Assembly (NCBI GenBank): GCA_963575745.1
Contig: CAUYUJ010000303.1
Location: 496,001 to 560,000, forward strand
DNA length: 64,000 bases
Direction of reading: 5' to 3'
Source of the DNA: Prorocentrum cordatum
Taxonomy: Eukaryota
Below the pieces are notes generated by a model. That model was not told the DNA's origin. It saw only the letters and a list, made by a program, of their open reading frames with translations, and did no database searches. Position 1 is the stretch's first letter. Every line of letters starts with the position of its first letter. Below are positions 20,412 through 62,181 of the stretch, piece by piece. Position numbers and translations under genes: made by a program.

Positions 20412-20607
20412 GCAAAGCAGGAGCCCGCCGCGAGGCCAAAGAACGCTTCGCTCGCGAACGGGCAAAGAGAGGCACGGCGCGGCGGGGAGCACGACCAGAG
20501 GCAAAGCAGGGGGCCGACCGACGAGGAGGAGGAGGAGGAGGAGGAGGAGGAGGCAGACCAGGGGGATGGAGGGCGGAACGCGCTTCTGCCAGGCAGGATG
20601 CCGCGCA

Positions 20608-21290
20608 GGAAAAGCGGTGCAATGATGACATCAAGACAACAGGACGAACCACCCACCCAGAAAAGCAGGCGACGATGGAGCCGCCGACTAGCATGTTCAG
20701 TCTAACGTGAACAGGCGCATTGCTGCACAAAATGGGCATCCTGATTTTAGGATGCCCTATCTGATACGGGCGTCGTAGGAAAAGCGGCGCAACGATGACA
20801 GCAAGACAACAGGACGAATCACCCACCCAGAAAAGCAGGCGACGATGGAGCCGCCGACAAGCATGTTCAGTCTAACGTGAACAGGCGCATTGCTGCACAA
20901 AAAGGGCATCCTGATTTTAGGATGCCCTCTCTGATACGGGCGTCGTAGGAAAAGCGGTGCAATGATGGCATCAAGACAACAGGACGAACCACCCACCCAG
21001 AAGAGCAGGCGACGATGGAGCCGCCGACTAGCATGTTCAGTCTAACGTGAACAGGCGCATTGCTGCACAAAAAGGGCATCCTGATTTTAGGATACCCTCT
21101 CTGATACGGGCGTCGAAGGAAAAGCGGTGCAATGATGACATCAAGGCAACAGGACGAACCACCCACCCAGAAAATCAGGCGACGATGGAGCCGCCGATAA
21201 GCATGTTCAGTCTAACGTGAACAGGCGCATTGCTGCACAAAAAGGGCATCCTGATTTTAGGATGCCCTATCTGATATGGGCGTCGTAGGG
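20608..21290 (+). repeat. 170-bp tandem repeat x4 with internal hairpins
   Basis: Units start at ~20608, 20778, 20948, 21118; GGGCATCCT-gatttt-AGGATGCCC stem. Confidence 0.93.
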
Positions 21291-21531
21291 ATTTTGTTCT
21301 TCTACTACGACTACCACTACCATTTCTATTGCAACTACTGCTGCTACAGCTCTACGACGACTAGTACTACTACCACCACTACTACTGTTGCTACAGCTCT
21401 ACGACGACTAGTACTATTACCACCACTACTACTGTTGCTAATACAACCACTCCTACCATAACTACCGACAGCGCCACCGCCACGACCAGAGGAAGCCGGC
21501 GAACCTCCAGACAAGGGGGGCCCCAGTCCCA

Positions 21532-21553
21532 CCCGCAGCACATTTTGGCTCAG
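21532..21553 (+). other. Degenerate (relic) spliced leader upstream of the transposase
   Basis: CCCGCAGCACATTTTGGCTCAG vs DCCGTAGCCATTTTGGCTCAAG; core CATTTTGGCTCA exact. Confidence 0.55.
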
Positions 21554-22838
21554 TGCGTTTTTCTCAACCGACCGTCTGGGCAACCGTTCTGCCACCGTCG
21601 GCGACGGGAAAGCGTGCTATCAAACGCCCTGCTGCCGCCTCCGCGCCGAAGAAGCGGCCTGCTAGTGCTTTCAGGCCGTTCCCCTTGCGCAAGAGGGGCA
21701 AGGACAGGATGGGCCAGCGCAGGAAGCAAGCGGAGAAGGTCGAGTACGTGCGCCACGGGAAGAAGACCGTGACATCCCGCAAGGAGCGCGAAACCTGGTG
21801 CCGCAACTACGACAGCTCCCACGGGAAAACTGCGGACCAGATGGTAGACCTGCTCCTCGAGGATGGCGTCCTGCTTGACTGGGAAGGCCGCGCCTGCCCT
21901 CGCTGCGGCGTCGGAACCTGCGGCGCGCGGGTGCACGATGACAATCGCGGCCCGCATTGGCGATGCAACAGCGGTAGGCTGCGCGGCAAGACCGTCAACC
22001 CGTGCACCGCCCACCCCGTCTTCAAGTCTGGCGGGGGTTGCCAATCGTCGAGTTTGTCGACGAAGGCCAAAGCCCTCTTCTGCCTCACGCTCGGCATGAC
22101 CACCGCCCAGATACACTTGCTAACAGGTGCCAACCGCAAGATGATCGAGGACACGAGCGCGGCCGTGGCAGCCGTGCGGCAGATCTACGTGGAGAAGAAC
22201 GACCGAACATTGTCTTCGGCGACGAAACTCAGCGGCGCTGGTTCGACGTGGAGGCGGATGAGTCGGTCTTCCGCGCCCAGCTGTCCGACGACGGTCGTTC
22301 CAAGACGTGGGAACAGCGGGCGGGCGTCGTCGAGCGCGGGCGCCCTGATAGCCTCGTTCTGTGGAAGACCCAGTCAGACGGCACCGAGGCCAACGCGCCA
22401 GGCCCAGGCGCCATCAAGAAGACGGATTGGGCGCCGCTCCTAAAAAGCCGTTTAGAGAAAAGGAAGGTCATCTTGCACTCTGACGGGGCCCGCAGCTACA
22501 AGATGCGCACGTCGGGGCTCGTGCGCGACCGCGTCGCACACTGCAAGAAGCGGAAGAAGATCGGCAGGAAGTGGGTTTGGTTGAAGCCAGTCTACTCGAA
22601 GGTTGTCACCCACTAATTGCCCGACGGCTCCAAGATCAGGGTAAAGGCAGGGGCGCAGATCATCGACCGCGCCTGGAGGTCCATCAAAACCCTCATTGGC
22701 ACGCGCACGGACCTCCCAGGCAGCAGGCGTCTCGCGGCATCGGTTCGCTCGGCCCAGTTCGAGTACTGGAACAAGGGTAAGGATATGTGGGCGGCCACCG
22801 CGGATGCTATCTGGGAGGTCATGGACGCGGCGCACTGA
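21553..22838 (+). pseudogene. Merlin/IS1595(ISXO2)-like DDE transposase, one frameshift (~22200) and a stop (22614-22616)
   Basis: N-terminal zinc ribbon ACPRCG..WRCN; VEADE, GVVERG, ILHSDGARSY, GAQIIDRAW motifs in the expected order. Confidence 0.8.
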
Positions 22839-23161
22839 GTGCCGATGTCGAGGGGTGTGTTTTTATTACGGAGTGCCGATGTCGAGGGGTGTGTTTTTAT
22901 ACAGCGCGCATGTGTTCCCGAGTGCGCGTGATTGACGTCGCGTTGATTGTCCCCACCGCAGCCGTGTCACATCTTTGACTCATCGTCGTCGTGCCCACGC
23001 TCTCTTGCTTCTTACTTCCATCTTCAGTGTGCATCGTTCGTCGTCGTCGCCCCCTTCCCAGGTGCTCAGCTGGCATCCGCGGCCGTCTGTGATCAACGCT
23101 TGCGCGCTGTTGCCCGTCATCCAAGGCCACCGCCCGACCCGCCTTTCTCTCGCCACGAATC

Positions 23162-25652
23162 ATGGCGAGCGCCCCTGCTGCTCAGGTGCAGTCGCTGGGG
23201 CAGGTTGCGTACGACGCCGGGGGAGACGGCAAGCTCACCTTTGAGGAGGCGTCGTTGGTGGTCAGCGGTAGCAAGTTAGACTACCACCCCTCGAAGTGCG
23301 TCAAGAAAGACAGGTTGGCTTTCGCTGGTGACCTTTCTATCTTCGGCCTTCCTCTGCTACCGATCGCGAATTTGAGTACCCCGAAGTTGGTCGCTTTCGC
23401 CGACATGGTATCCAACTACGAGGGCCCGGTTGACTTCGACAAGGTGCACGAGTTGTGCGCACAGGGTAGGTTCAAGGACTTGCAGGAGCCGCTGTCGCTC
23501 AAGCAGGAGCCCGTCGTCCCGTATACGATGCAGATCTTCATCGTTCGCCAGAAGCCAGAGGACAGCGAGTGTTCGGCATACCGCATCCTCAAGGTTGTTT
23601 CTTTCGGTAAAAACAGAGCCCATTCTGCGACCATCCTCAAGTGTGCTCGCGGAGAGGCCCACAAAATCGATTGCGGCAAAAACTTTCGGGCGGGGTCGAC
23701 TGCGTTCCAGTTCATGTTGGAGAAGCCCGAGGGCTATCAAATACGGTGGGCGCGCTCGGATAAAGATCCCCCTCCTGCCCGCCCCAGCTCAGGGGCATCC
23801 CCCCGCCCCGTTTTTCAAAACGAGTTGGGCGCCCTATCTGTGGCGACCCAGCGATCGGGACCCCCTGGGCTTCTCACCGTATGTATGCCTATCCAGCGCC
23901 TCCACCGCAAGGTACTTCACGAGCAAGCCGCAGCACGAGCGGAAGCAGCCGCTAGAGGAGGACGAGCGCGCGCAGAGTTACACGGTCATCCGTGAACATG
24001 GCCCCCGCAGCAAAACAGAAACCAGCCCATGGAATGGGCTGACACAGAGGTCAACAGGGGGGGTTCGAAGATATTCGGATGGCCTGCGTCCAAGGTGGAG
24101 ACTGCGCTGCGCAATTACCAGAATGGCAGGACGAATGCCAAACCGATCTCGCGCTGGAGTTTGACGCTGAAGGACTTATCTGGCTGGTTCCTCAATGGCG
24201 TCCTCCGCCTGATGATTGGCACGCTCCACATGCGCGGGGTGCTGTGGGTCGGGAAGTCCAGAGTTGGCAAGAGCAACGGTTCGAAGACGCTTGCTTGGGT
24301 TCATTCGGCGTACAGCATACAGAAGAAGGGCACCGCCGATGAGATCACTTTCCTGACGGTGAAGCATATGGATTTCTTCAAGGGCGAGCCGACGACGGAG
24401 ATCCTCCCTGGCATTTTCGACGACGGCCTGCTTCGGAAGGTTCGGTGGCCTGGCGTGGCCCACGCCATTGCCGCCCGCGGCTTCCAGGGAGACTGCGGTT
24501 CTTCCCACCGCATCGCCCTCCCAAGTGGAAGTCGCGGTGGCGTTGGTAATCGGGCGAACGCTTGGCCGCTTGAAGGTATCCGCTGATGTGCTCATGGCTT
24601 TCTTGAACCCCAAGGAAGAGGACGCTCTGCTGTGGGCTCGGTGGGGCGGCTGCGCTTTCGAGCAAGGGTCGTGCAGACAGGCCGTCGCGAACCCCTACGA
24701 CCGCGACGCGGAGAAGGCGGCGCTGGACGCCGCGACGCTAAACAAGTAGGGCTTCGACCTGCTCAAGCGTATCATCGCGCCGTCTCTGGAGGATGTCATG
24801 ACAGAGGAGGACTTCAACGCCATCCTCGCCAGGGCGCACGTCATCGTGGTGACGGACCTCGGCGTGCATTGGCGCGCGGCATCCGCCAACCTGCAGGATG
24901 GTGCAGAGTTCATGCCGTGGCCCAACCCCAGGAGCCCCGACCTCTTCGTCAGCGAAGTGCGGGACGCGACGTCGCCAGCCATCCGCCCGCTCCCCTCAGA
25001 CTACGCCGAAAAGATGGCTTGGTCGATTGGGTACATGAGCAATGTGGTCGCGGGCCTTGACGTGCCCACTATTGCGACTGTCCATGTTGCTCCTATCTTC
25101 GGCGATGGCCCTGCGCGCGTTGTCTCCGCTGTCGGCAACGTTTCAGGGTTCGTTACAGGCGCGGCCAGCGCTCCGCCAGCCGCCGCGGTCGCTGCGGCGT
25201 TTTCCCAGCCGCCCGCCGAGTTGCCCCAGGAGGAGGACGCGTTCGGCTTCGGCGGCGGAATGGACGAACCGCCAGAAGACAGCTTGCGCGCCGCCAGCTC
25301 CGCGCAGCCCAACATCGTTGGGCGTTGCGGCGAGCTCACCAAGGAGGACCAGGACGAGCAGCTCGCGATTTTCAAGAGCCTCGCCAAGGCGCACCACGGT
25401 GCGTTCGAGGACTTGTCCTCGCCTCCGCCAGCGAAGAGGGCGAGGGGGCTCATGTTGGGCTGCGGCGGTCCGTTGTCACCCGTGGATGCCGATGAGCAGA
25501 GGGCGATCTTCGCTTCCATTGCCGCCTCGGCCCACGGTGAAACGATCGACGTCGAGGATGACGACGGTCTGTCGGCAGAGCTCGCGCGCGTGATTGACGA
25601 GGGGGGGCCGCCCTCTGAGTCGGCGACGGCGCGCCGCAGCGAGGCTGACTGA
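23162..25652 (+). pseudogene. SF3 (AAA+/CRESS-Rep-like) helicase-domain gene with two predicted introns, one frameshift (~24020) and one stop (24747-24749)
   Basis: Walker A GKSRVGKS; Walker B IFDD; ARWGG; motif C VANP; Arg-finger-like AILAR; splicing 23746-23911 and 24440-24575 (both GT-AG) restores the frame. Confidence 0.62.
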
Positions 25653-26320: not shown

Positions 26321-26857
26321 ATGGCCGCTCCCGTGAACCTTGTCGAGGTCGGCGTGCGCTTGACCGAGCTCTGGCTGCTGCGGGGGCACGCCTGCCCGTC
26401 TTGCAGCTGTCCGGCCTGTCCGGCCCAGACCTGCTCGCTGACGTGCAGCGGGCCGGCCTCCAGCCACAGCGAGCGCTGCGCGGCTCCGGAGGCGCCGGGA
26501 GGCCCCGGTTGGCTCGCCGTGTGGCTGGCCGCGGCGGCCAGGGCGAGCTTCGCCTGGCTCGCCGCTCGCTGCTGGCCCCCGGCGGCCACTCACGCCGCCG
26601 CCCTCGCCACGGAAGCGCCGCCAGTCCCAGACCGCGCTGCGTCGCGGCCGACGCCCGCCGCGACAGTTGGGCCCGTGACGCCGAGCCAGCTCGCGTTGCG
26701 GGCGCGAGCTCGTGATGGCGGCCCGCCTCACGCTAGACCTGGCGGAGCCGCAAGTCCTGATCGACTTCCCGGACGATGCTGCGGGCCTGCGCTGGCATCA
26801 CCGCCTCCTTCTCATCCAGACGCCCACGCCGGGCGTCTGGATCGCCAGCACGCCTGA
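26321..26857 (+). CDS. Small leading ORF of the YR retroelement: Cys-rich motif plus hydrophobic segment; function unknown
   Basis: ATG immediately after repeat A1; CPSCSCPACPAQTCSLTC then GWLAVWLAAAARASFAWLAARCW; overlaps the gag start. Confidence 0.45.
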   Translation: MAAPVNLVEVGVRLTELWLLRGHACPSCSCPACPAQTCSLTCSGPASSHSERCAAPEAPGGPGWLAVWLAAAARASFAWLAARCWPPAATHAAALATEAPPVPDRAASRPTPAATVGPVTPSQLALRARARDGGPPHARPGGAASPDRLPGRCCGPALASPPPSHPDAHAGRLDRQHA

Positions 26858-27980
26858 CTACTCGGTCCAGAGGCTGGACCTCAGCGTGCATCGCGTCGTC
26901 GCTCTGGCGCGCAACGGCCCTTTCCCTGCGGCTCAGTGGAAAGAGAGGTACGTTTTTGACAACCCGATCCCGGCAGCGGACCTCGCGCGGATCAGGCAGC
27001 AGGCTGGCTCGCTCGCCGTCGTCCTCGGCCAGGTCGGCCCCGCGCCCGCGGCCCCTCCAGGCGCGGCCGGGGTCTGGCGAGTCGCCGACCCCTCGCATCG
27101 CGCTTTCGGGGACGGGATCCCCTCCCAGGTCCTCAGCGACCCAGCCGCGTTCATCGCGCCCGACGCCGCGGGCGACGAGGACTACCTCTGCGGCCTCGTG
27201 ATGATCGACAACTGTTGGACGTTCTGCCAGCTCGTGGCCGACCCTGATAAGGGCGCCCGGGAGAGGGCCCTAGTCTCAGACCACCGCAAGGACGCGCGGG
27301 TCGAGGGCGACACTCGCGACCCGCTGACTGGCCAGCGCCTGTCGTCCTTCGTTGACTCCTTGGCCCTCCAGCACGCGGCCTCGGACCCACCGCTCCCTCT
27401 CGGCGGCCAGAGGGTCGCTCACGAGTGCATGTGGACCTTGCGCGCCACGGACATGGAGTGGGTCACGCATCACCTGGACTTCGTCCACAAGCCGGGCATC
27501 TCGCCCAACAGCAACATCACGCGCGCGCACCGTCGCCTGACGGACGCGCTGCACGCCTTCCAGCAGCAGGACATGCTGAACCTTCCCAGCCTCGTCGGCA
27601 TCCAGGTCTTGGTGCGCTACCTCGTCCAGATCGAGACGGCGGTCGCCCGCAACCCTCGGAGCCCGGACTTCCAGGACCTCGACGCGGTCGTCGCCTCCAC
27701 GGTCAACGAGCACGGCGGCCTGGTCTTGCCCGAGTACACGAAGCACATCGCCCAGATCCAGAAAGACGAGGCTTTCACTTTGAAGCAGCAGCGGCAGTGG
27801 CGCGAGGAGCAGATCTCGCGCGCGCGGGGCCGCGGCGCTGGCCATGATGACGGACCCGGCGACGGCGCCGGAGGAAGAGGCGACGGCGGCGGCCGCGGCA
27901 GGGGCCGCGGGCGCGGTCGCGATGGTGGACGCGGACGCGGCGGTCGGGGGGCCGATGCCCCCGCCGCCGCCGACGGGTGA
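26715..27980 (+). CDS. Gag-like ORF of the YR retroelement (~421 aa)
   Basis: Long, non-low-complexity ORF upstream of RT; WHHRLLL near the N-terminus; RG-rich C-terminus. Confidence 0.7.
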   Translation: MAARLTLDLAEPQVLIDFPDDAAGLRWHHRLLLIQTPTPGVWIASTPDYSVQRLDLSVHRVVALARNGPFPAAQWKERYVFDNPIPAADLARIRQQAGSLAVVLGQVGPAPAAPPGAAGVWRVADPSHRAFGDGIPSQVLSDPAAFIAPDAAGDEDYLCGLVMIDNCWTFCQLVADPDKGARERALVSDHRKDARVEGDTRDPLTGQRLSSFVDSLALQHAASDPPLPLGGQRVAHECMWTLRATDMEWVTHHLDFVHKPGISPNSNITRAHRRLTDALHAFQQQDMLNLPSLVGIQVLVRYLVQIETAVARNPRSPDFQDLDAVVASTVNEHGGLVLPEYTKHIAQIQKDEAFTLKQQRQWREEQISRARGRGAGHDDGPGDGAGGRGDGGGRGRGRGRGRDGGRGRGGRGADAPAAADG

Positions 27981-54063: not shown

Positions 54064-54085
54064 TCCGTAGCCATTTTGGCTCAAG
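54064..54085 (+). other. Exact dinoflagellate spliced-leader sequence (TCCGTAGCCATTTTGGCTCAAG) followed by GT
   Basis: 22/22 match to the DinoSL consensus DCCGTAGCCATTTTGGCTCAAG. Confidence 0.9.
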
Positions 54086-56274: not shown

Positions 56275-59200
56275 TCAATCTGCGATGTCCCGCATCTCAT
56301 TCGCTCTCACGAGTTTGTCCTGCTGCCTCTTCTCCGTCTTCCTAGTGTCGATGGCGGTCTTGCGGCTAGCACGCTGCATACTCTTCTTCATCTTGATCGC
56401 CGCCGCCGCCGGGTCCTGCACCAGGCTCCACTTGGCCTCCCGCAGCACCTTGTAGAGGTAGACCTTGTCCACCCCAAGCTTCGTCAGCACATCTGCGATG
56501 TTCTGCGAGCCGTCAATCCACCTGAGGTGGGTGTTCTCGCAGCGCAGCACTTCTCTGAGCAAGGCGCCCTCGATCGCCATCCTCTTGTCCTTGCTCTTAG
56601 CCGAGCCCTCCTTCGTGAGGTGGTCGTAGACGGACTTTGCGTCTGTCGCCCAGAAGCGGGGAAGCCGCTGCACCTCCCCCTGCCAGTTGAGCAAATCCAC
56701 CGAGACATTCGTAGCCTCTCTGAACAGCACTGCCGCCCAGTCGACGGCCTCCACTGCGTCTGCCAGGTGACTGGCCTCCGCCGCCAAGGTTGAGCGGCAC
56801 ACACGCTGCGTCATGCCGCTCTTCCAGTCCAGTACTGCCACCGGTGCTTGGTGTCCGGCCAGGATGCCGTCGGTCGTGAGGAGCACCACGTGGCCACCGC
56901 AGCTCTTGTAGCGCTCAATGTCGTCGTGCTCCGGGCCGTTCGCGTGACCCGCGTCCACGGCCGCGCCAATCACAGCGCTGGACAGCCTCAAGTTGGCCGG
57001 GTAGACCAGCGCGACCTCAGCGCCCTTCTTGGCCTCAGACACCGCCAGGTTCGCCTTCACCAGGTCCGCCACACACGGGGCCGCTCGGGCCCTCTGCAGC
57101 TCGCCCGAGAGGAAGACCAGGTCGAGTCGGCATTGTCGACCTAGCCAGCCGATCTCACCAGACACCCTCAGCAGTTCCTTCGCCTCATCCTCGTTCAAGT
57201 CCTCCTGCAACTGCTTCCTTCGACCTGCTGGGATCTTGATCGGCTTGAGGGAAGTTGCGTAGTTCACCATCTTAACCAGAAAACCTTTCGAATCACTCGA
57301 AAGCTCGCGGCCGCGGAAGGTGAGGGGCAGCTCGCTCCACTTCCACTGGAACGTACCCAGGACCTTCGGCAGGAGGTCCGACAGCTGCATGTCCTTCATC
57401 CTCGCCACCAGCACGTCGTCCACGTGCGAGACCGCGATGCCCTTCAGCTGCCCGTCCACGCGCTTGTAGAAGAGCGCCGGCTCCAGGCGCGACTGAAGCC
57501 AGCCGTCGGACAGCAAGGCGTCACGCAGCGCTAGCCAGAATAGCCTTGCTGCCTCCGCGAAGCCGTAGATGGCCTTGCGGGCCCTCAGCAACTGGCCCGG
57601 GGCAAGGCCAGGCAGGCCCCCTCGAGGCTGCTCCAGGTAGACCTCGCGTTGCAGGTTCTGCCCATTGAAGTAGGCGTTCTTGACATCGCCGAGTGAGAGG
57701 ATCATGCCCATGGCCGCCGCCAGCGTCAGGAGCAGCGCCTCCGCCAGCCGTGATGCAGTAGGAGCGTCCCGCCTGAACATACCCAGCAAGCGGTCGCGAA
57801 AGCCCACCACGACCAGGCGGCTCTTCGCGAGCAGCGGCAGAGGAGCTCCGGCCTCGTCGTACTTCCCGTTTTTCTTGTCGGTATCCACCCAGCGCATCGG
57901 GATGATGATGTTGGCCTTGTCCGCGCGGAGCGCCTCGCTCTCATCCGGCGGGATCGGCTCAGCCGCGTCGAAGTCCTGCCAGGATCGCCACTCTGCATCA
58001 CGACTGCCACCTCGATCCATGAACATCCGGCGTTGCTCCTCAGGCAAGCTGCCGAGCTTGATCTCCTTCCTCCCAGGCTTCTTCGTCAGGAACGCGTGCT
58101 CGAACTCATTCCGCATCAGCCCGAAGATGAACTCCTCCTTGCCGATGCCCTCCTGGACGAAGAAAGCCTCGCCCTGCTGGTACGTCTCCAAGCCGGCCTC
58201 CATGAACTCATCCAGGTCATTGTCCAGCACGAACTTCGCCGAGTCGACAGATCCTGCAGTCCCCTGTCGGATCGAGACAGGGACATCGTCCAGCAGGCGC
58301 CGTCGCTTGGCCTCCCGCTCGCGGCGCTCCTCAGTCTCCTCTTCCTCCAGGAGACTCCCAGGACGCCGATGTCGAGAGGCCTCCGGCTCGGGCTCCGTGT
58401 GCACCCCGTGGGAGTCGGGGTGCCAGTCATCGTCGCCGTCGTCCCTCATGATCTCCTGCGTCGCCGCGTCGAACTCCATCGCGTCGAAGTCCAGGTCGGG
58501 CGGCACGGGCACGTCCTCAGCCCCCACAGCTGGGGCTGGCGCCGCGGGCGGCTCGGGCGCGGCCGGAGCCGCGCGGGGAGCCTCCGCCTCAGGCGGGGCC
58601 GGAGGCGCCTCCGGCTCAGGCGGAGCCGAGGCGGGCTGCGGCTCCTCCGGCACCTCCGCCCGCGGCCCGACGTCCATGCCGCTCTCGTCGCCCTGCTCAG
58701 CGGGCTCCTGCCCCGCCGCGGCGGGGGGCTTGGGGCGGCCTCGCAGGTCCACGAAGCCACTACCGCCGCTGACGGGCGCGTCGTGCACCAACTCCTGCTC
58801 CTGCGCAATCGATCTCCAGGCGTGGATCTCGTGGCCAGTCGCTGCAGCCAGGTGCTCCGGGCTCGCGAGCACGGTGAGGCCACGAAAAGCAAGCCACACT
58901 CCATGCCGACCCTCATGTCCGATCACGCGCGCCAGCCCTCGCCAGTTGTCTGGATGCTCAGGTCGATGCTTGGCTGGCTGCGCTTGGTCGTAGAAAAGCA
59001 CCCACTGGCCGACAACGAACGGCCCTCTCGTCGGTCGTATCTGTCGAAGCTCCGCTCGTCGAAGTCGATCCTCCGTGTCGGTCTGGATGAAAGCCATCCA
59101 GCACTGGGTCCTGATCTCCACCTTGCGGGCAAAACGCGAGCCCGGCGTAGCAGCTGCCACCTGCTCGCCCACACGCTCCACTTCGGCGTCGTCCGCGAGG

Positions 59201-62136
59201 CTCGCCGGGAGGCGAACATCCCGGCCGAGGACCCAGAGGTAGGGGCTGAAACCAGCCCGCCGGGCCAGCGTGTTCTTGGCCCTGTTGCACTCCGTCACTG
59301 CCGTTCTCATCTCCTCAAGGCCCGCCACCTGCTTGTCGTGCACCACCCTCGTGAGCATCGAGTTCCAGATGCCGTCGTGGCGCTCCATCTTGCCGATGTG
59401 CCACGGCGAGGCCAGAGCGGCCGAGTCCAGGCGCACGCCCTCCTGCTCCAGGTAGTCCGCGAACTCGCCCAGGAAGGACCGCGCGCGGTCCACCATGATC
59501 GCCTCCTCCGGCTGGCCAGCCCAGGAGACCCAGCAGAGCTCGTAGAACTTCCTGACCTCCGAGGCCTTGGGGTTCTTGTGAGTGTCCTCCAGCAGGCAGA
59601 CCACGTGGAAGTTCGTCCCCATACACATGATGCCAAGGAACTCCCAGTTGTTGCCGGCGCTGTCGACGTTCTCGAAGCAGTCCATCGCAAGCAGCACGTT
59701 AAATTCGTCGACCCTCGGGAGCTGACTCGGACGTGGGATGCTGGGTCGCTGCACTCGCCGGCAGCTCTCACAAACAAACAGCCTCGCTGCCTTCAGCGCC
59801 AGAGCCGTTGCCTTGCCCAGGCGCAACGCCCTGAGCAGCGCTGGCCGTGAGGGGTGCCCGAGGTTCACGTCCACCCTCTCGATCGCCCTCTTGACGGCCC
59901 TCGGCAACAGCTCCCAACGTCGCTTCCTCTCCCGTGAGGCGTCCCGCTGCTGTGCTGCAGCCGGCCCCTCGGGCAGGTCGCCCCGCTCGTAGCCCGCGAA
60001 GTAGAAGACCACCACGTCGTTCTCGAGTAGATGTCGTGGCAACCAGCGCCGTCGTGCTTGCAGTGACTGTTGCGACCAGTCCTCGAAGTCTAGCCTGAAG
60101 AGCTGGTCGCCCTTGAGCGTCGTGACCATCCTGAGCGGGGCGTCCGCGGCGTGCAGCTGCGGTTGCGCCGTCTGGAGCCGCTGACCCCCGCGTCTAGCCT
60201 TCACCATCTTCAGCGGCTCGCTGATGACTCCTCCCAGCTCCTCCAGGAAGAGGTCCGAGCCCCAGATGATCGTCTCGATATCCTCGCCCATCTTCTCCAG
60301 TAACCTCCTATGCCAACTCCAGAATGTGTCCAGCTCAGCGCATAGCTCCACCGTCAGCAGCTCGAACTCGCCGTACTGCGTACGCCGTCCCCGTCGGAAG
60401 CCCAGCGGGCGTCCGCCAGGAGGCACTCCGCGCTCGCGGCGAGCAGGCGCTCGGCCGCGCCTGGGCCTCACGGGCACCTCGGCCGGTGCCTCTGGGGCCT
60501 CCGCCGCCGCCTCGGCAGGCGGCGTGTCCTCTCCGAGAGGCGGACCCTCCTGGTGTGCCTCCTCCGGCACAGGCTCTCCCCGCGGCGGGCTCCGCGACCG
60601 CGGACGCTCGTGCGGGAAAGCATCCTCCACAGGGAAGGCCGCATCCATTACCAGCGAGCTGCGGTAGTCGATCTGCATCTGCTGGAGCACGCCGCGACAG
60701 AAGGCCTTCGCGAGGCCCACGGGGTAGGCTGCCGCCTGCTGCGCCCGATAGCCACCCGAGTTCTTCCCGAGCAGCTGCTGGTGGGCGCCGGGCGGACAGG
60801 CACAGCGCTTGCTCAGGTGGTTCGCCACCGCTGCGCTGTTCGTGAGCCACCCCGTCGGCTTCTTGATCGGCTTGCCCGTGTCCTTGTCGCAGGCTCCATA
60901 GGCACATTGATCTCCGCGCACAAACACAACACCTTCCAAATCCCACAAACATATCAGGATGCCGGCATACTCCCAAGAAAGTGCTGTCAAAGGCTGCTCT
61001 ATCAAGAAATACCGTCCTCTCGCATGCACACATCGAGATACCCGCCGAACGAGCAAAAGATAACGACGAGCACTCCTGCGGACCTCATCCCAGTCGATGA
61101 GCTTGTTCATGTTGGTCATCAGGGACCACGGATGACAGGGAAAAGCCAACACTGTGATGTAAGGCCAGTGCAGGTCGAGGATCCGGTAGAGTAAGGCCCG
61201 TCCAGGGCCCTTGAGCAAGTCATAGTCGGGAGAGTGGTCCACGTCCAGCGGCTGAGACTGCATCCAACCGTATTCCTTTGCACCGTAGCGCGTCAGGATG
61301 TGCTCCCCACCGAACGGCTCGAACACCACCGTGGTCTGGAAGTCGGCGGTCACGAAACGCTCCGCCTCGAACCTCGGTCGAAGTAGCTCTTCTCGTAGTC
61401 GTCGATCCTCTCCACGAAGCTCACGCCAGGTGGACTCGAGCTTCTTCCGAGTCGTCTTGGAGAGGATCCCTGTCGCGTCGGTGGCCAGCACACCGCGATC
61501 CTTCGACAGGAAGGCGTGGCCAACCTCCTCCTCGACCCGGATCTCCTCGCCGTCGGACTCCTCGAAGACCGACTCCTTCTGCGCCTGCGCGTAGAAGAAC
61601 TCCGAGTCCCTCTTATTCGAGATCACCGTCGCTGGTCCTGAACTCGAAGCTGCTGCCGATCGGTGACCATCATCGTCTCCCCAGTCATCAAGTCGCACTG
61701 CCAAGTGACCGCCCACCTTGAGCAGCTGCACGTCCACGGCGAGCGTCTGCAGCTCCATCCGCATCTCCTTCAGGTGGAGCACGGCACCCAGCGCCTCCTG
61801 CGACGCCAGGCTGACCAGGAGCGGGGTGTCGCAGTCCTCCATCTCCGTGCTGAAGATCACCCCGCGGCGGCCGCCAAGGGCGACCGGGATCTCGACCACG
61901 CGCCCCTCCTGCCTCTTGCCGAAGGCCGAGGAGAAGCTCCTCACGCGGTCCGTCATCTTGATCTCGAGGCCGCGGGGATGCAGGCACCTCTTCTCGAACA
62001 GCTCCCGCCAGTATTTGCTGTGCATACATCTTGTGCAACCGGTATCGATGAGCGCCACTGGTACGTCAGACGTGTCACTGTCTTCACTCACCATAAGCAC
62101 CATCTCCAAAAATCCTTCCCCGGGTACTGGGCGCAC
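56275..62136 (-). CDS. pol: Pol polyprotein (1953 aa uninterrupted): aspartic protease, C5-DNA methyltransferase, integrase, RT, RNase H
   Basis: PR ALIDTGC; DNMT FEPFGG / AFPC / IEQP / DQCAYG..KKPT / AAAYP (~60690-61340); INT NLGHP..CESC, MDCF, VDRARSF, KMER; Copia-type RT KSRLVVVGF, DVKNAY, KAIYG, HVDD; RNase H VDA, RSTLAAE, TDAKS, NIADVLTK. The ORF-track start is GTG and the true start is uncertain. Confidence 0.95.
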   Translation of the reverse strand: MRPVPGEGFLEMVLMVSEDSDTSDVPVALIDTGCTRCMHSKYWRELFEKRCLHPRGLEIKMTDRVRSFSSAFGKRQEGRVVEIPVALGGRRGVIFSTEMEDCDTPLLVSLASQEALGAVLHLKEMRMELQTLAVDVQLLKVGGHLAVRLDDWGDDDGHRSAAASSSGPATVISNKRDSEFFYAQAQKESVFEESDGEEIRVEEEVGHAFLSKDRGVLATDATGILSKTTRKKLESTWRELRGEDRRLREELLRPRFEAERFVTADFQTTVVFEPFGGEHILTRYGAKEYGWMQSQPLDVDHSPDYDLLKGPGRALLYRILDLHWPYITVLAFPCHPWSLMTNMNKLIDWDEVRRSARRYLLLVRRVSRCVHARGRYFLIEQPLTALSWEYAGILICLWDLEGVVFVRGDQCAYGACDKDTGKPIKKPTGWLTNSAAVANHLSKRCACPPGAHQQLLGKNSGGYRAQQAAAYPVGLAKAFCRGVLQQMQIDYRSSLVMDAAFPVEDAFPHERPRSRSPPRGEPVPEEAHQEGPPLGEDTPPAEAAAEAPEAPAEVPVRPRRGRAPARRERGVPPGGRPLGFRRGRRTQYGEFELLTVELCAELDTFWSWHRRLLEKMGEDIETIIWGSDLFLEELGGVISEPLKMVKARRGGQRLQTAQPQLHAADAPLRMVTTLKGDQLFRLDFEDWSQQSLQARRRWLPRHLLENDVVVFYFAGYERGDLPEGPAAAQQRDASRERKRRWELLPRAVKRAIERVDVNLGHPSRPALLRALRLGKATALALKAARLFVCESCRRVQRPSIPRPSQLPRVDEFNVLLAMDCFENVDSAGNNWEFLGIMCMGTNFHVVCLLEDTHKNPKASEVRKFYELCWVSWAGQPEEAIMVDRARSFLGEFADYLEQEGVRLDSAALASPWHIGKMERHDGIWNSMLTRVVHDKQVAGLEEMRTAVTECNRAKNTLARRAGFSPYLWVLGRDVRLPASLADDAEVERVGEQVAAATPGSRFARKVEIRTQCWMAFIQTDTEDRLRRAELRQIRPTRGPFVVGQWVLFYDQAQPAKHRPEHPDNWRGLARVIGHEGRHGVWLAFRGLTVLASPEHLAAATGHEIHAWRSIAQEQELVHDAPVSGGSGFVDLRGRPKPPAAAGQEPAEQGDESGMDVGPRAEVPEEPQPASAPPEPEAPPAPPEAEAPRAAPAAPEPPAAPAPAVGAEDVPVPPDLDFDAMEFDAATQEIMRDDGDDDWHPDSHGVHTEPEPEASRHRRPGSLLEEEETEERREREAKRRRLLDDVPVSIRQGTAGSVDSAKFVLDNDLDEFMEAGLETYQQGEAFFVQEGIGKEEFIFGLMRNEFEHAFLTKKPGRKEIKLGSLPEEQRRMFMDRGGSRDAEWRSWQDFDAAEPIPPDESEALRADKANIIIPMRWVDTDKKNGKYDEAGAPLPLLAKSRLVVVGFRDRLLGMFRRDAPTASRLAEALLLTLAAAMGMILSLGDVKNAYFNGQNLQREVYLEQPRGGLPGLAPGQLLRARKAIYGFAEAARLFWLALRDALLSDGWLQSRLEPALFYKRVDGQLKGIAVSHVDDVLVARMKDMQLSDLLPKVLGTFQWKWSELPLTFRGRELSSDSKGFLVKMVNYATSLKPIKIPAGRRKQLQEDLNEDEAKELLRVSGEIGWLGRQCRLDLVFLSGELQRARAAPCVADLVKANLAVSEAKKGAEVALVYPANLRLSSAVIGAAVDAGHANGPEHDDIERYKSCGGHVVLLTTDGILAGHQAPVAVLDWKSGMTQRVCRSTLAAEASHLADAVEAVDWAAVLFREATNVSVDLLNWQGEVQRLPRFWATDAKSVYDHLTKEGSAKSKDKRMAIEGALLREVLRCENTHLRWIDGSQNIADVLTKLGVDKVYLYKVLREAKWSLVQDPAAAAIKMKKSMQRASRKTAIDTRKTEKRQQDKLVRANEMRDIAD

Positions 62137-62181
62137 GTGGCGCCCGCGAGGGGCCCCTCTGGGCCCCGGTGTGGAGTGTGC

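Follow-up and report, generated by a model that had tools for sequence, protein, structure and literature searches.

Why does a gene for a transposase lie directly before a gene for a helicase of viral type in a dinoflagellate genome, and do the two belong together? The question arises from a 64,000-nt stretch of Prorocentrum cordatum DNA (GenBank assembly GCA_963575745.1, contig CAUYUJ010000303.1, positions 496,001 to 560,000 of the forward strand), which we call the window and in whose coordinates all positions are given. Its DNA is GC-rich (~60%), repeat-laden and eukaryotic. A first-pass annotation had described a decayed DDE-type transposase followed, ~320 bp downstream on the same strand, by a gene with the motifs of a superfamily 3 (SF3) helicase, and had proposed that they form an undescribed two-gene mobile element. 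Both genes are real, with 323 nt between them, and our analyses show that they travel jointly in many diverged copies. We read the region at ~21.5-25.7 kb as a dead copy of a selfish two-gene DNA unit in which the helicase would serve as replication initiator and which, by the names seen among its relatives, appears to be specific to dinoflagellates. In our judgement the case for this reading is evenly poised. The part of the earlier proposal that stands is the recurrent linked pair, whereas terminal inverted repeats (TIRs) or shared ends were not found and mobility is something we infer.

Recurrent pairing of the two genes

An exhaustive phmmer search of 1.84 billion cluster representatives returned 373 relatives of the helicase at E <= 1e-3, 165 of them at <= 1e-10, with a typical length of 650-740 aa. 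The named members come from dinoflagellates (Polarella, Prorocentrum, several Symbiodinium, Effrenium, Cladocopium and 'Skav' models); the sole other name, Pyramimonas, labels a 96-aa transcriptome fragment placed inside a Prorocentrum cluster. For the transposase, 52 homologues were found by sequence search and 279 matches with a family profile, of which the best 120 were in-family only. For the window parts, homology reaches E 2.7e-107 (helicase) and 6.3e-100 (transposase), and a chance origin of both genes is therefore excluded. The closest named proteins are from P. cordatum in both cases, P0175 for the transposase (Table 1) and P0228 for the helicase (95% identity over 174 columns), followed by relatives from Polarella and Symbiodiniaceae.

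Metagenome loci were collected with the helicase family as sole query, using patterns drawn from the 9 closest helicase sequences; the same patterns served for the viral and prokaryotic scans described below. This gave 19 loci, 17 of them distinct (L006 is L007, and L003 nearly equals L005), with GC contents of 43-49%. An IS1595-like transposase adjoins the helicase on the same strand in 8 distinct loci. The helicase comes first in seven of these (L001, L002, L004, L006/L007, L012, L015 and L017), with gaps of ~100-1,660 nt, and the transposase lies upstream, in window order, in L011. In L008 and L010, a transposase resembling the Kyakuja-Dileera-Zisupton (KDZ) superfamily follows the helicase or is fused to it. 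If only those distinct loci are counted whose sequence runs 0.6 kb or more past the helicase match, 9 of 11 carry a transposase on the same strand (7 IS1595-like, 2 KDZ-like); the two that do not, L013 and L018, contain helicase debris only, and the remaining loci are too short to tell. Paired loci span 32-79% helicase identity. Furthermore, two P. cordatum gene models, P0232 (transposase at residues 1-406, then helicase) and P0231, are fused in window order. The first-pass annotation had held beforehand that unlinked homologues elsewhere would speak against a common element; with eight distinct loci and both gene models linked, the pairing withstood this comparison.

It is thus extremely improbable that the two genes are chance neighbours, or that one repeat family merely inserted beside another. 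Although the region is dense in repeats and mobile DNA, for example a copia-type reverse transcriptase at 56275-62181, and although the identity matrices of the two genes are incongruent (see below), such an origin would hardly produce the same strand and short spacing in eight further distinct loci over this range of identities, two more Prorocentrum loci in window order, and in-frame fusions with an alternative, KDZ-like transposase.

Two further pairs of proteins are probably linked as well: P0157 (Polarella helicase) and P0388 (Polarella transposase) are both encoded on a 661,048-nt contig, and P0230 (676-aa helicase) and P0340 (423-aa transposase) on a contig of 4,699 nt.

The KDZ-like partner occurs in ten proteins, in which the C-terminal half of the helicase is followed in frame by a KDZ-like region (P0003, P0266, P0283, P0294, P0299, P0302, P0308, P0310, P0311 and P0312). 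Half of them start their match at residue 374, the first after the conserved intron 2. The Pfam scores of the partner region are just below the cut-off in P0003 (KDZ, 25.4 bits vs 26.6) and P0299 (CxC5, 26.8 vs 26.9) and lower still in P0308, P0283 and P0294. In a quick IQ-TREE of the C-terminal half of the helicase (42 rows, midpoint root), no fewer than two changes of the partner label are required: the KDZ-linked P0003 is sister to the IS1595-linked Prorocentrum clade with support 99, and the other 11 KDZ-linked rows are nested within IS1595-linked rows of the clade with Symbiodinium-named models. The tree shows that the helicase was joined at least two times independently to an unrelated KDZ-like transposase, there as one polypeptide. 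A literature search on this point gave no report of a KDZ-helicase fusion; the window has no such partner. At L008 2286-4241, as in P0003, P0283, P0299 and P0308, helicase and KDZ-like region with its CxC5 cysteine cluster are in frame, and the polypeptide would have ~1,400 aa.

A covalent fusion of this kind in ten proteins would also fit a role of the ATPase inside the transposition reaction. The same mobile unit might use it, as a DNA-bound oligomer, as a transposition helper for target choice, transpososome remodelling or transposase control, in analogy to IstB of IS21, MuB of Mu or TnsC of Tn7, and the combination of a DDE enzyme with an oligomeric P-loop ATPase is the rule in these three systems. 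However, we know of no helper ATPase that switches between unrelated transposase superfamilies, as this ATPase did at least two times according to the helicase tree. We return to this explanation with the fold of the protein.

Structure and decay of the window copy

The features of the window copy are listed in Table 1, including a relic of the dinoflagellate spliced leader (DinoSL) upstream of the transposase.

Table 1. Positions of the gene pair and its associated features in the window
Feature	Position	Strand	Remarks
Relic DinoSL-like sequence	21533..21553	+	3 edits from the 21-nt DinoSL (as given in the accessible part of PMC6050394); transposase start 51 nt downstream
IS1595/Merlin-like DDE(D) transposase pseudogene	21604..22838	+	88.8% identity to P0175, 394 aa
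Two tandem copies of a 33-nt direct repeat, overlapping the transposase stop codon	22834..22900	+	copies 97% identical
Helicase gene, 729 codons, two GT-AG introns	23162-25652	+	ATG 23162, stop TGA 25650-25652
Helicase exon 1, predicted N-terminal Rep-nuclease/origin-binding fold, without HUH motif or catalytic Tyr	23162..23745	+	79.6% identity to P0005, 196 aa
Intron 1, 166 nt, GT..AG	23746..23911	+	excision restores the frame and residues common with P0153
Helicase exon 2: helical linker, Walker A (GKSRVGKS), Walker B (IFDD)	23912..24439	+	base missing after 24013
Intron 2, 136 nt, GT..AG	24440..24575	+	position conserved in the helicase family
Helicase exon 3: sensor Asn (AVANPYD), AILAR Arg, C-terminal alpha/beta domain, disordered acidic tail	24576..25652	+	

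For the transposase, the first-pass annotation had given a remnant at 21553-22838. A tblastn search with P0175 (UniRef name 'ISXO2-like transposase domain-containing') matched 21607-22203 and 22194-22835 on the + strand, the 52 homologues likewise mapped a single transposase-like reading to this place, and the identity in Table 1 was obtained after one N had been inserted at 22201/22202. The start codon is lost (ACG for ATG at 21604-21606), one base is missing at 22201/22202, and an in-frame TAA at 22614-22616 precedes the terminal TGA at 22836-22838. Related contigs from four public runs (including X1, X2 and X3; library type unrecorded, DNA or RNA) have a T at 21605 that gives ATG, an extra A after 22201 and AAG at 22614-22616; a look at 7 runs listed no RNA library among them. 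Since these contigs are intact at the lesions, the lesions are private to the window copy or its assembly.

Members of the transposase family have ~385-430 aa. In 25 full-length relatives, C94, C97, C118, C123, D209, E211, D213, E214 and D349 do not vary, and D288 occurs in at least 90%, with the same outcome for 35 sequences. The four cysteines make up an N-terminal zinc ribbon, and the acidic triad is present with Asp, not Glu, as its third residue; the window copy retains VEADES, LHSDGARSY and QIIDRAW. The Pfam family PF12762 (DDE_Tnp_IS1595) did not match the window pieces even at E 10, and of 14 intact relatives two gave sub-threshold matches (14 bits vs a cut-off of 27, E 0.05-0.06). Among the language-model neighbours of P0175 in the ESM Atlas, PF12762 clusters made up 22 of 30 matches (0.93-0.94), and the UniRef label of P0175 is shared by P0384, P0388, P0391 and P0412. 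A tblastn search of 72,556 plasmids with P0197, aimed at annotated IS1595 genes, yielded a single irrelevant match. From the conserved residues and these neighbours we read the protein as a probable zinc-ribbon DDD transposase of IS1595/Merlin type.

According to the accessible text of PMC8101967, described Merlin elements and IS1595 insertion sequences consist of a single transposase gene with TIRs and 8-9-bp target site duplications (TSDs). The zinc ribbon, the order of the acidic triad, the PF12762-cluster neighbours and the 'ISXO2-like' names are common to both sides. In contrast, the unit in the window has a second, larger gene linked to it, TIRs were not found, the third catalytic residue is Asp, and PF12762 remains sub-threshold. 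We hence class the protein as IS1595-like, without calling the unit as a whole a canonical Merlin element.

With both introns removed and an N placed at the gap, the helicase gene yields a product of 729 aa with one internal stop, which is 76% identical to P0153 (587 aa) and 50% to P0003 (718 aa). One X1 contig skips 23750-23890, within intron 1. A gap corresponding to intron 2 occurs at the same residue (373/374 of P0006) in L001, L002, L004, L006/7, L008, L009 and L010, and the intron is absent from L003/5, L012 and L014. Contigs of X1 and X3 contain a form lacking intron 2, with a loose end in X2, and a diverged paralogue without this intron (X1, X2, X3) has 16 nt in place of 152 nt, a net difference of 136 nt; the form without intron 2 in X1-X3 may be a retrocopy or a transcript.

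The motifs that had drawn attention to the helicase, GKSRVGKS, IFDD, VANP (within AVANPYD) and AILAR, are all present. Both genes had been described as similarly decayed, with one frameshift and one stop each. This count was right for the helicase, in part for other reasons: the break at ~24440-24575 is an intron, and removal of intron 1 puts the TGA at 23993 out of frame, so that it is no lesion. For the transposase, the loss of the ATG has to be added. The true helicase lesions are the base missing after 24013 and an in-frame TAG at 24747-24749 that replaces a Tyr of the relatives. Related contigs hold an extra T or C after 24013, so that this lesion is private to the window copy or its assembly. 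The single-base gaps after 22201 and 24013 both lie in short A runs and could be assembly errors. As it stands, the window copy is unable to make either protein.

Summed depth of the related contigs is 13-61 in most 267-nt bins between 21.6 and 25.87 kb, reaches 359 in the bin 25073-25339, i.e., in the low-complexity tail, and drops to 1-6 from 25.87 to 26.7 kb; on the left, contigs break in a CTA microsatellite. From this profile it follows that the repeated unit measures ~4.4 kb, with exact ends undefined. Decayed helicase or transposase copies are found in the window, L012, L013, L017, L018 and L019, and each named genome holds many paralogues. The dN/dS ratio (nonsynonymous to synonymous divergence) is 0.18 for L011 vs L016, and other pairs give dN 0.1-0.6 with dS saturated; purifying selection has acted on both genes.

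Fold of the helicase protein

An AlphaFold2 model of P0006, based on the 35-sequence alignment, reached a pLDDT (predicted local distance difference test) of 83 and is confident over residues 20-580. In a Foldseek search against viral models (BFVD) it gave 367 matches at E <= 1e-3. Among the top 50, all 24 named entries are Rep or replicase proteins of CRESS viruses (which have circular single-stranded DNA encoding Rep) or cruciviruses, or polyomavirus helicases, and the best match (E 5.4e-10) extends over ~400 columns and covers both the N-terminal domain and the ATPase. The top matches in the PDB were Vientovirus Rep (4.1e-4), SV40 large T antigen, AAV2 Rep40/68 and plasmid RepB. The resemblance to CRESS-virus Rep helicases suspected from the motifs is in line with these Foldseek matches.

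The N-terminal domain, modelled on its own from P0005, has a pLDDT of 92.4. Compared with 48,161 PDB chains without prefilter, only 6h8o (Z 5.6) and 2hw0 (5.4), both Rep nuclease domains, reached Z >= 5. Ranks 1-11 were all Rep nuclease or origin-binding domains, from nanovirus, circoviruses, SV40 large T, E1, geminivirus and Vientovirus, with modest Z values (5.6-4.3) over 90-115 residues. Foldseek E-values against the PDB were only 0.03-0.08 for this domain, and the weight of the fold assignment would lie in the consistency of the match list.

The first-pass annotation had seen no HUH nuclease motif in this region, and we agree: an H-u-H/Q motif at the strand equivalent to motif II occurs in none of 35 helicase sequences, where equivalence means the order of secondary-structure elements and not residue-level superposition. 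Yet the predicted fold there is that of a Rep or origin-binding domain. His133 is present in 22 of the 35 sequences, with no His at this place in the window and its Prorocentrum relatives. At the only Tyr candidate, Y159, Tyr is found 20 times, Trp 7, Phe 4, Leu 3 and Ile once. The two residues do not go together (both 13, His only 9, Tyr only 7, neither 6); conserved instead are D74 (30/35), K132 (33/35) and G152 (33/35). We read the N-terminal domain as a Rep/origin-binding fold that lost its HUH and Tyr nuclease residues, and rolling-circle nicking is unlikely. Without conserved HUH histidines or catalytic Tyr, the modelled architecture resembles large T antigen and E1 more closely than an active Rep.

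In the ATPase, G297, G302, K303 and R449 are invariant in 35 sequences (alignment A1), and D354 and D355 are kept in at least 90%. In the 9 closest sequences (alignment A2), N399, R449 and H451 (P0006 numbering) are invariant. ESM Atlas neighbours of the stretch 23996-24445 carried PF00910 in 25 of 30 matches (0.96, 211 shared features). The best sub-threshold match to an SF3 family in Pfam was Parvo_NS1 in P0020 (E 0.0099). When PDB sequences were searched by phmmer with the helicase part, all matches had E > 1, and the family profile gave only P-loop matches there, to dynein and p97 (E 0.01-0.5). Structural comparison with VIA-align placed DotB (Z 8.3), AAV Rep40 (7.9-8.2) and GspE, PilT and BchI (7.8) close together. 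Fold alone is hence no proof of SF3 membership, as Rep40 ties with DotB, PilT, GspE and AAA+ proteins. The helical bundle of P0006, in contrast, aligns only with Rep40 and E1 (ranges from 191-204). The identification as an SF3 helicase, which the first-pass annotation had made open to challenge, is supported by the Foldseek ranks, the PF00910 neighbours, the Walker, sensor and Arg residues, the helical bundle and the Rep-like N-terminal domain. Taken together, the models suggest a protein composed of a nuclease-dead Rep/origin-binding fold, a helical bundle, an SF3-type, putatively hexameric ATPase, and an extra C-terminal domain with an acidic tail.

These structural data also bear on the helper explanation introduced above. 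IstB is among the structural matches of the ATPase domain, with Z 6.8 within the tie, and the loss of nuclease residues from the N-terminal domain would suit a helper. However, the fold of that domain and the domain order are those of the viral initiators Rep, large T and E1, unlike IstB, MuB or TnsC, and the best Foldseek matches are Rep proteins that span both domains. We therefore consider a transposition helper unlikely. A predicted complex of P0006 (1-585) with the Polarella transposase P0388 (70-449), computed without alignments, scored 0.00 and speaks neither for nor against binding.

With viral Rep, large T and E1 as the closest folds, the helicase gene could alternatively be what remains of a small endogenous DNA virus or plasmid (CRESS-, parvo-, polyoma- or papilloma-like) near an unrelated transposon. 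As far as the accessible text of PMC6668415 goes, SF3 helicases with such an N-terminal domain are otherwise known from viruses and plasmids. Beside the pair, however, there is no capsid-like or other viral gene, and nearby open reading frames of the window that we tested had no Pfam or PHROG match. A pattern scan of 2.9 million viral contigs gave 205 matches and no relative of the helicase, and a scan of one genome per prokaryote species gave 24 matches and again no relative; both scans are weak, as they used two short peptide patterns. Conserved spliceosomal introns in the helicase family and transposase adjacency that recurs in diverged copies also argue against a viral remnant, which we regard as very unlikely.

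At its C-terminal end, the window protein has a disordered tail (25227-25268 and ~25340-25535) that retains an acidic motif with FG-x-G as its last part; most close relatives carry this motif, likewise at the C-terminal end. In the Prorocentrum clade and P0003 the tail contains two copies of a short E-Q-x-A-I-F-x-S motif, which looks like a candidate ubiquitin-interacting motif.

A putative replicative unit and its surroundings

How might a selfish unit make use of both proteins? The transposase would cut and integrate the unit, while the helicase would bind a site within it, as large T antigen and E1 bind origins, and open the DNA for the host replisome, raising copy number. The unit could be copied as an excised circle or in place before excision, by which a cut-and-paste element would become replicative.

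Several results weigh against this reading. The mobility of the unit, and an origin, iteron set or binding site within it, are putative. We could not delimit the element in the window or the loci, which leaves no flank to inspect for a TSD; among gapped inverted repeats, the top score in the window is 19 vs a shuffle mean of 18.9, gapped repeats are at shuffle level in 5 of 6 loci, the sixth being an AT microsatellite, and terminal overlap, which would indicate circularity, occurs in 0 of 19 metagenome loci. Exact inverted repeats of at least 12 nt flanking 9 units were likewise limited to TA microsatellites and one 12-mer, in line with the first-pass annotation, which had found no TIRs. At the protein level, none of 15 helicase relatives tested, nor any window piece, reached a Pfam gathering cut-off, and VIA-align does not separate SF3 from PilT/DotB-type and AAA+ ATPases (Z 8.3-7.0). 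Gene order varies, with the helicase first in 7 loci and the transposase first in the window, L011, P0231 and P0232. Fused gene models of distant helicase subfamilies (P0035/P0038 type; P0423, P0435) have no recognisable transposase. The linkage search ran one way, from helicase to transposase, and the frequency of solitary transposases is outside its scope. Pairwise identities of the two genes are incongruent in 7 units (r 0.30, Mantel p 0.19), from which it follows that the genes have not simply co-diverged; we read the helicase as a constant module that exchanged its recombinase and recombines among co-resident copies.

Finally, the relic DinoSL and the paralogues without introns show that RNA-mediated copying, which is common in dinoflagellates, contributed. 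In an exhaustive edit-distance scan of the window and the 19 loci, the relic and a perfect copy at 54065-54085 were the only sites within 3 edits, and 0 of 5 shuffles of the 165 kb gave a DinoSL site at this distance. The relic marks one or more rounds of RNA-mediated copying in the ancestry of the window copy. No site within 3 edits was seen before the window helicase gene.

Such copying would be expected if the two genes were a domesticated or host-maintained pair that was no longer autonomously mobile and had multiplied by retroposition and segmental duplication, as is typical for genes of dinoflagellates, with one dead duplicate in the window. Beyond the relic, DinoSL-like sites at 5 edits, i.e., at chance level, lie 44 nt before the L004 transposase and 77 nt before the L011 helicase. 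Paralogues exist both with and without introns, and, according to the accessible part of PMC5585692, ~23% of Symbiodinium genes were reported to be retrogenes. Missing TIRs and ends with TSDs, together with long-lasting purifying selection, would be natural for host genes. Merlin-related genes without detectable TIR or TSD were reported earlier from Symbiodinium, and in the accessible text of that paper the authors found the conservation of the transposases puzzling (PMC8101967). A host pair, however, would not readily account for several deeply diverged lineages within one genome along with many decayed copies, or for partner exchange and incongruent identity matrices, which are typical of recombining selfish elements; catalytic residues are retained in both proteins as well. 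The window helicase retains two introns and is thus no plain processed retrocopy; dinoflagellate retrogenes that retain introns are reported in the accessible part of PMC6050394. We regard a host-maintained pair as rather unlikely and prefer the selfish unit.

If the selfish unit is accepted, a broader claim can be made more tentatively, namely that it possibly represents an undescribed class of dinoflagellate replicative transposons. Its constant core would be a Rep-derived initiator helicase, nuclease-dead and similar to large T and E1; unrelated DDE transposases would have been recruited to it at least two times, the IS1595/Merlin-like one as an adjacent gene and the KDZ-like one by covalent fusion, and replication would be fired for copy-and-paste transposition. 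In such a class, the helicase might fire replication on an excised circle, in place, or at strand-transfer forks. The accessory protein is one not previously seen in such a role within a DDE transposon or a module of replication plus integration. Our searches of the literature, with subscription journals and Repbase reports outside their coverage, found no account of a dinoflagellate helicase-transposase unit or of a DDE transposon with a protein that joins an origin-binding domain to an SF3 helicase. The words 'helicase' and 'second ORF' (open reading frame) are absent from the accessible text of PMC8101967. In a survey of viral transfers into Symbiodiniaceae (PMC9651163), the helicases mentioned in the accessible text are all from RNA viruses, and the words 'CRESS' and 'ssDNA' are missing from it.

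Comparison with known systems sets the unit apart from each of them. According to the accessible text of PMC6668415, the initiators of polyomaviruses and papillomaviruses are SF3 helicases whose HUH domain is inactivated. The window protein would share with large T and E1 this inactivated HUH-fold domain followed by an SF3 helicase; the DNA-binding domains of SV40 large T and E1 are within the top 11 matches of its N-terminal domain, and large T, E1 and AAV Rep40 align with it from the helical bundle through the ATPase. It differs in having no J or zinc domain, in its extra domain at 470-580 and acidic tail, and in lacking detectable sequence similarity. In addition, its gene is nuclear, contains introns, occurs in many copies and has a transposase gene as its linked partner; neither the window nor the loci showed a capsid gene beside it. 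With CRESS Rep and parvovirus NS1 it has in common the order of HUH fold, oligomerisation helices and SF3 ATPase, and it finds its best Foldseek matches there; nanovirus and circovirus Rep are the top VIA matches of the N-terminal domain. Unlike CRESS Rep, it does not conserve HUH and catalytic Tyr, and it is about twice as large.

Helitrons and Replitrons, mobile DNA of eukaryotes as well, centre on a Rep-fold protein, which in Helitrons is joined to a helicase. They use an active HUH nuclease as transposase, and the Helitron helicase is SF1B (Pif1-like), whereas in the window unit the Rep fold appears to be nuclease-dead and a DDE enzyme would act as recombinase. In the accessible part of PMC10288648, the Replitron-1 protein is drawn without a fused helicase domain, and 'DDE', 'Merlin', 'IS1595' and 'dinoflagellate' are absent from that text. 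Polintons/Mavericks, casposons and transpovirons combine a replication protein of their own with a DDE-type or other integrase, as described in the accessible parts of 10.64898/2026.10.13.758929 and PMC4046053. In contrast to their protein-primed family B polymerase, the window unit has a putative initiator helicase, no polymerase, and a length of ~4.4 kb.

IS21 (IstA/IstB), Mu (A/B) and Tn7 (TnsB/TnsC) are also two-gene systems of a DDE transposase and an oligomeric P-loop ATPase; they are prokaryotic, and their ATPase clade and N-terminal domain are others.

Eukaryotic DDE transposons are thought to gain copies through host replication and repair. Exceptions are known: Polintons carry a polymerase, and Helitrons and Replitrons employ a Rep nuclease as transposase. 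If our reading is correct, the regular coupling of a transposase to an origin-binding SF3 helicase of viral type, with fusion in one lineage, would add another route by which replication and integration modules are joined. It would also be a concrete case of traffic between small DNA viruses or plasmids and transposons. On the broader claim, the unit would in addition be a eukaryotic parallel to self-synthesising transposons, with an initiator in place of the polymerase, and a living intermediate between such viruses or plasmids and transposons. Furthermore, our reading could explain why dinoflagellate Merlin-related transposases are conserved despite having no TIRs, a question raised in the accessible text of PMC8101967. 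The 373 cluster representatives add a large unannotated family to dinoflagellate genomes, whose size and repeat load are poorly understood, and the family may supply compact helicases whose N-terminal DNA-binding domain is new.

Some features of the surroundings remain to be described. The 30-nt core of the 33-nt direct repeat at the transposase stop codon (Table 1) occurs only at these two sites in the window, and 0 of 100 shuffles matched it. Directly upstream of the pair, 20607-21440 holds four copies of a 170-nt tandem repeat (94% matches), 2.3 copies of a 47-nt repeat, and a CTA microsatellite. Tandem repeats also lie just outside the gene pair at L007 1-225, L002 196-287 and 4221-4385, and L012 1765-1993; they are common in such DNA and could be either binding sites or ordinary repeats. 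A search of all window pieces against Pfam and PHROG returned nothing useful, the helicase and transposase pieces having no PHROG match, and its sole Pfam match, Permuted_GreAB-C (E 0.013), is spurious. Downstream of the unit, 26679-27980 (+) holds a 433-aa open frame without Pfam or PHROG match; related-contig depth rises again at ~27.2 kb, hence this frame belongs to another repeated family. The perfect 21-nt DinoSL at 54065-54085 (+) is directly followed by GT and could be a spliced-leader RNA gene or a very young retrogene tag. The copia-type frame mentioned above lies on the - strand, comprises 1,968 aa (RVT_2, E 2.6e-16) and looks like a largely intact long terminal repeat retrotransposon.

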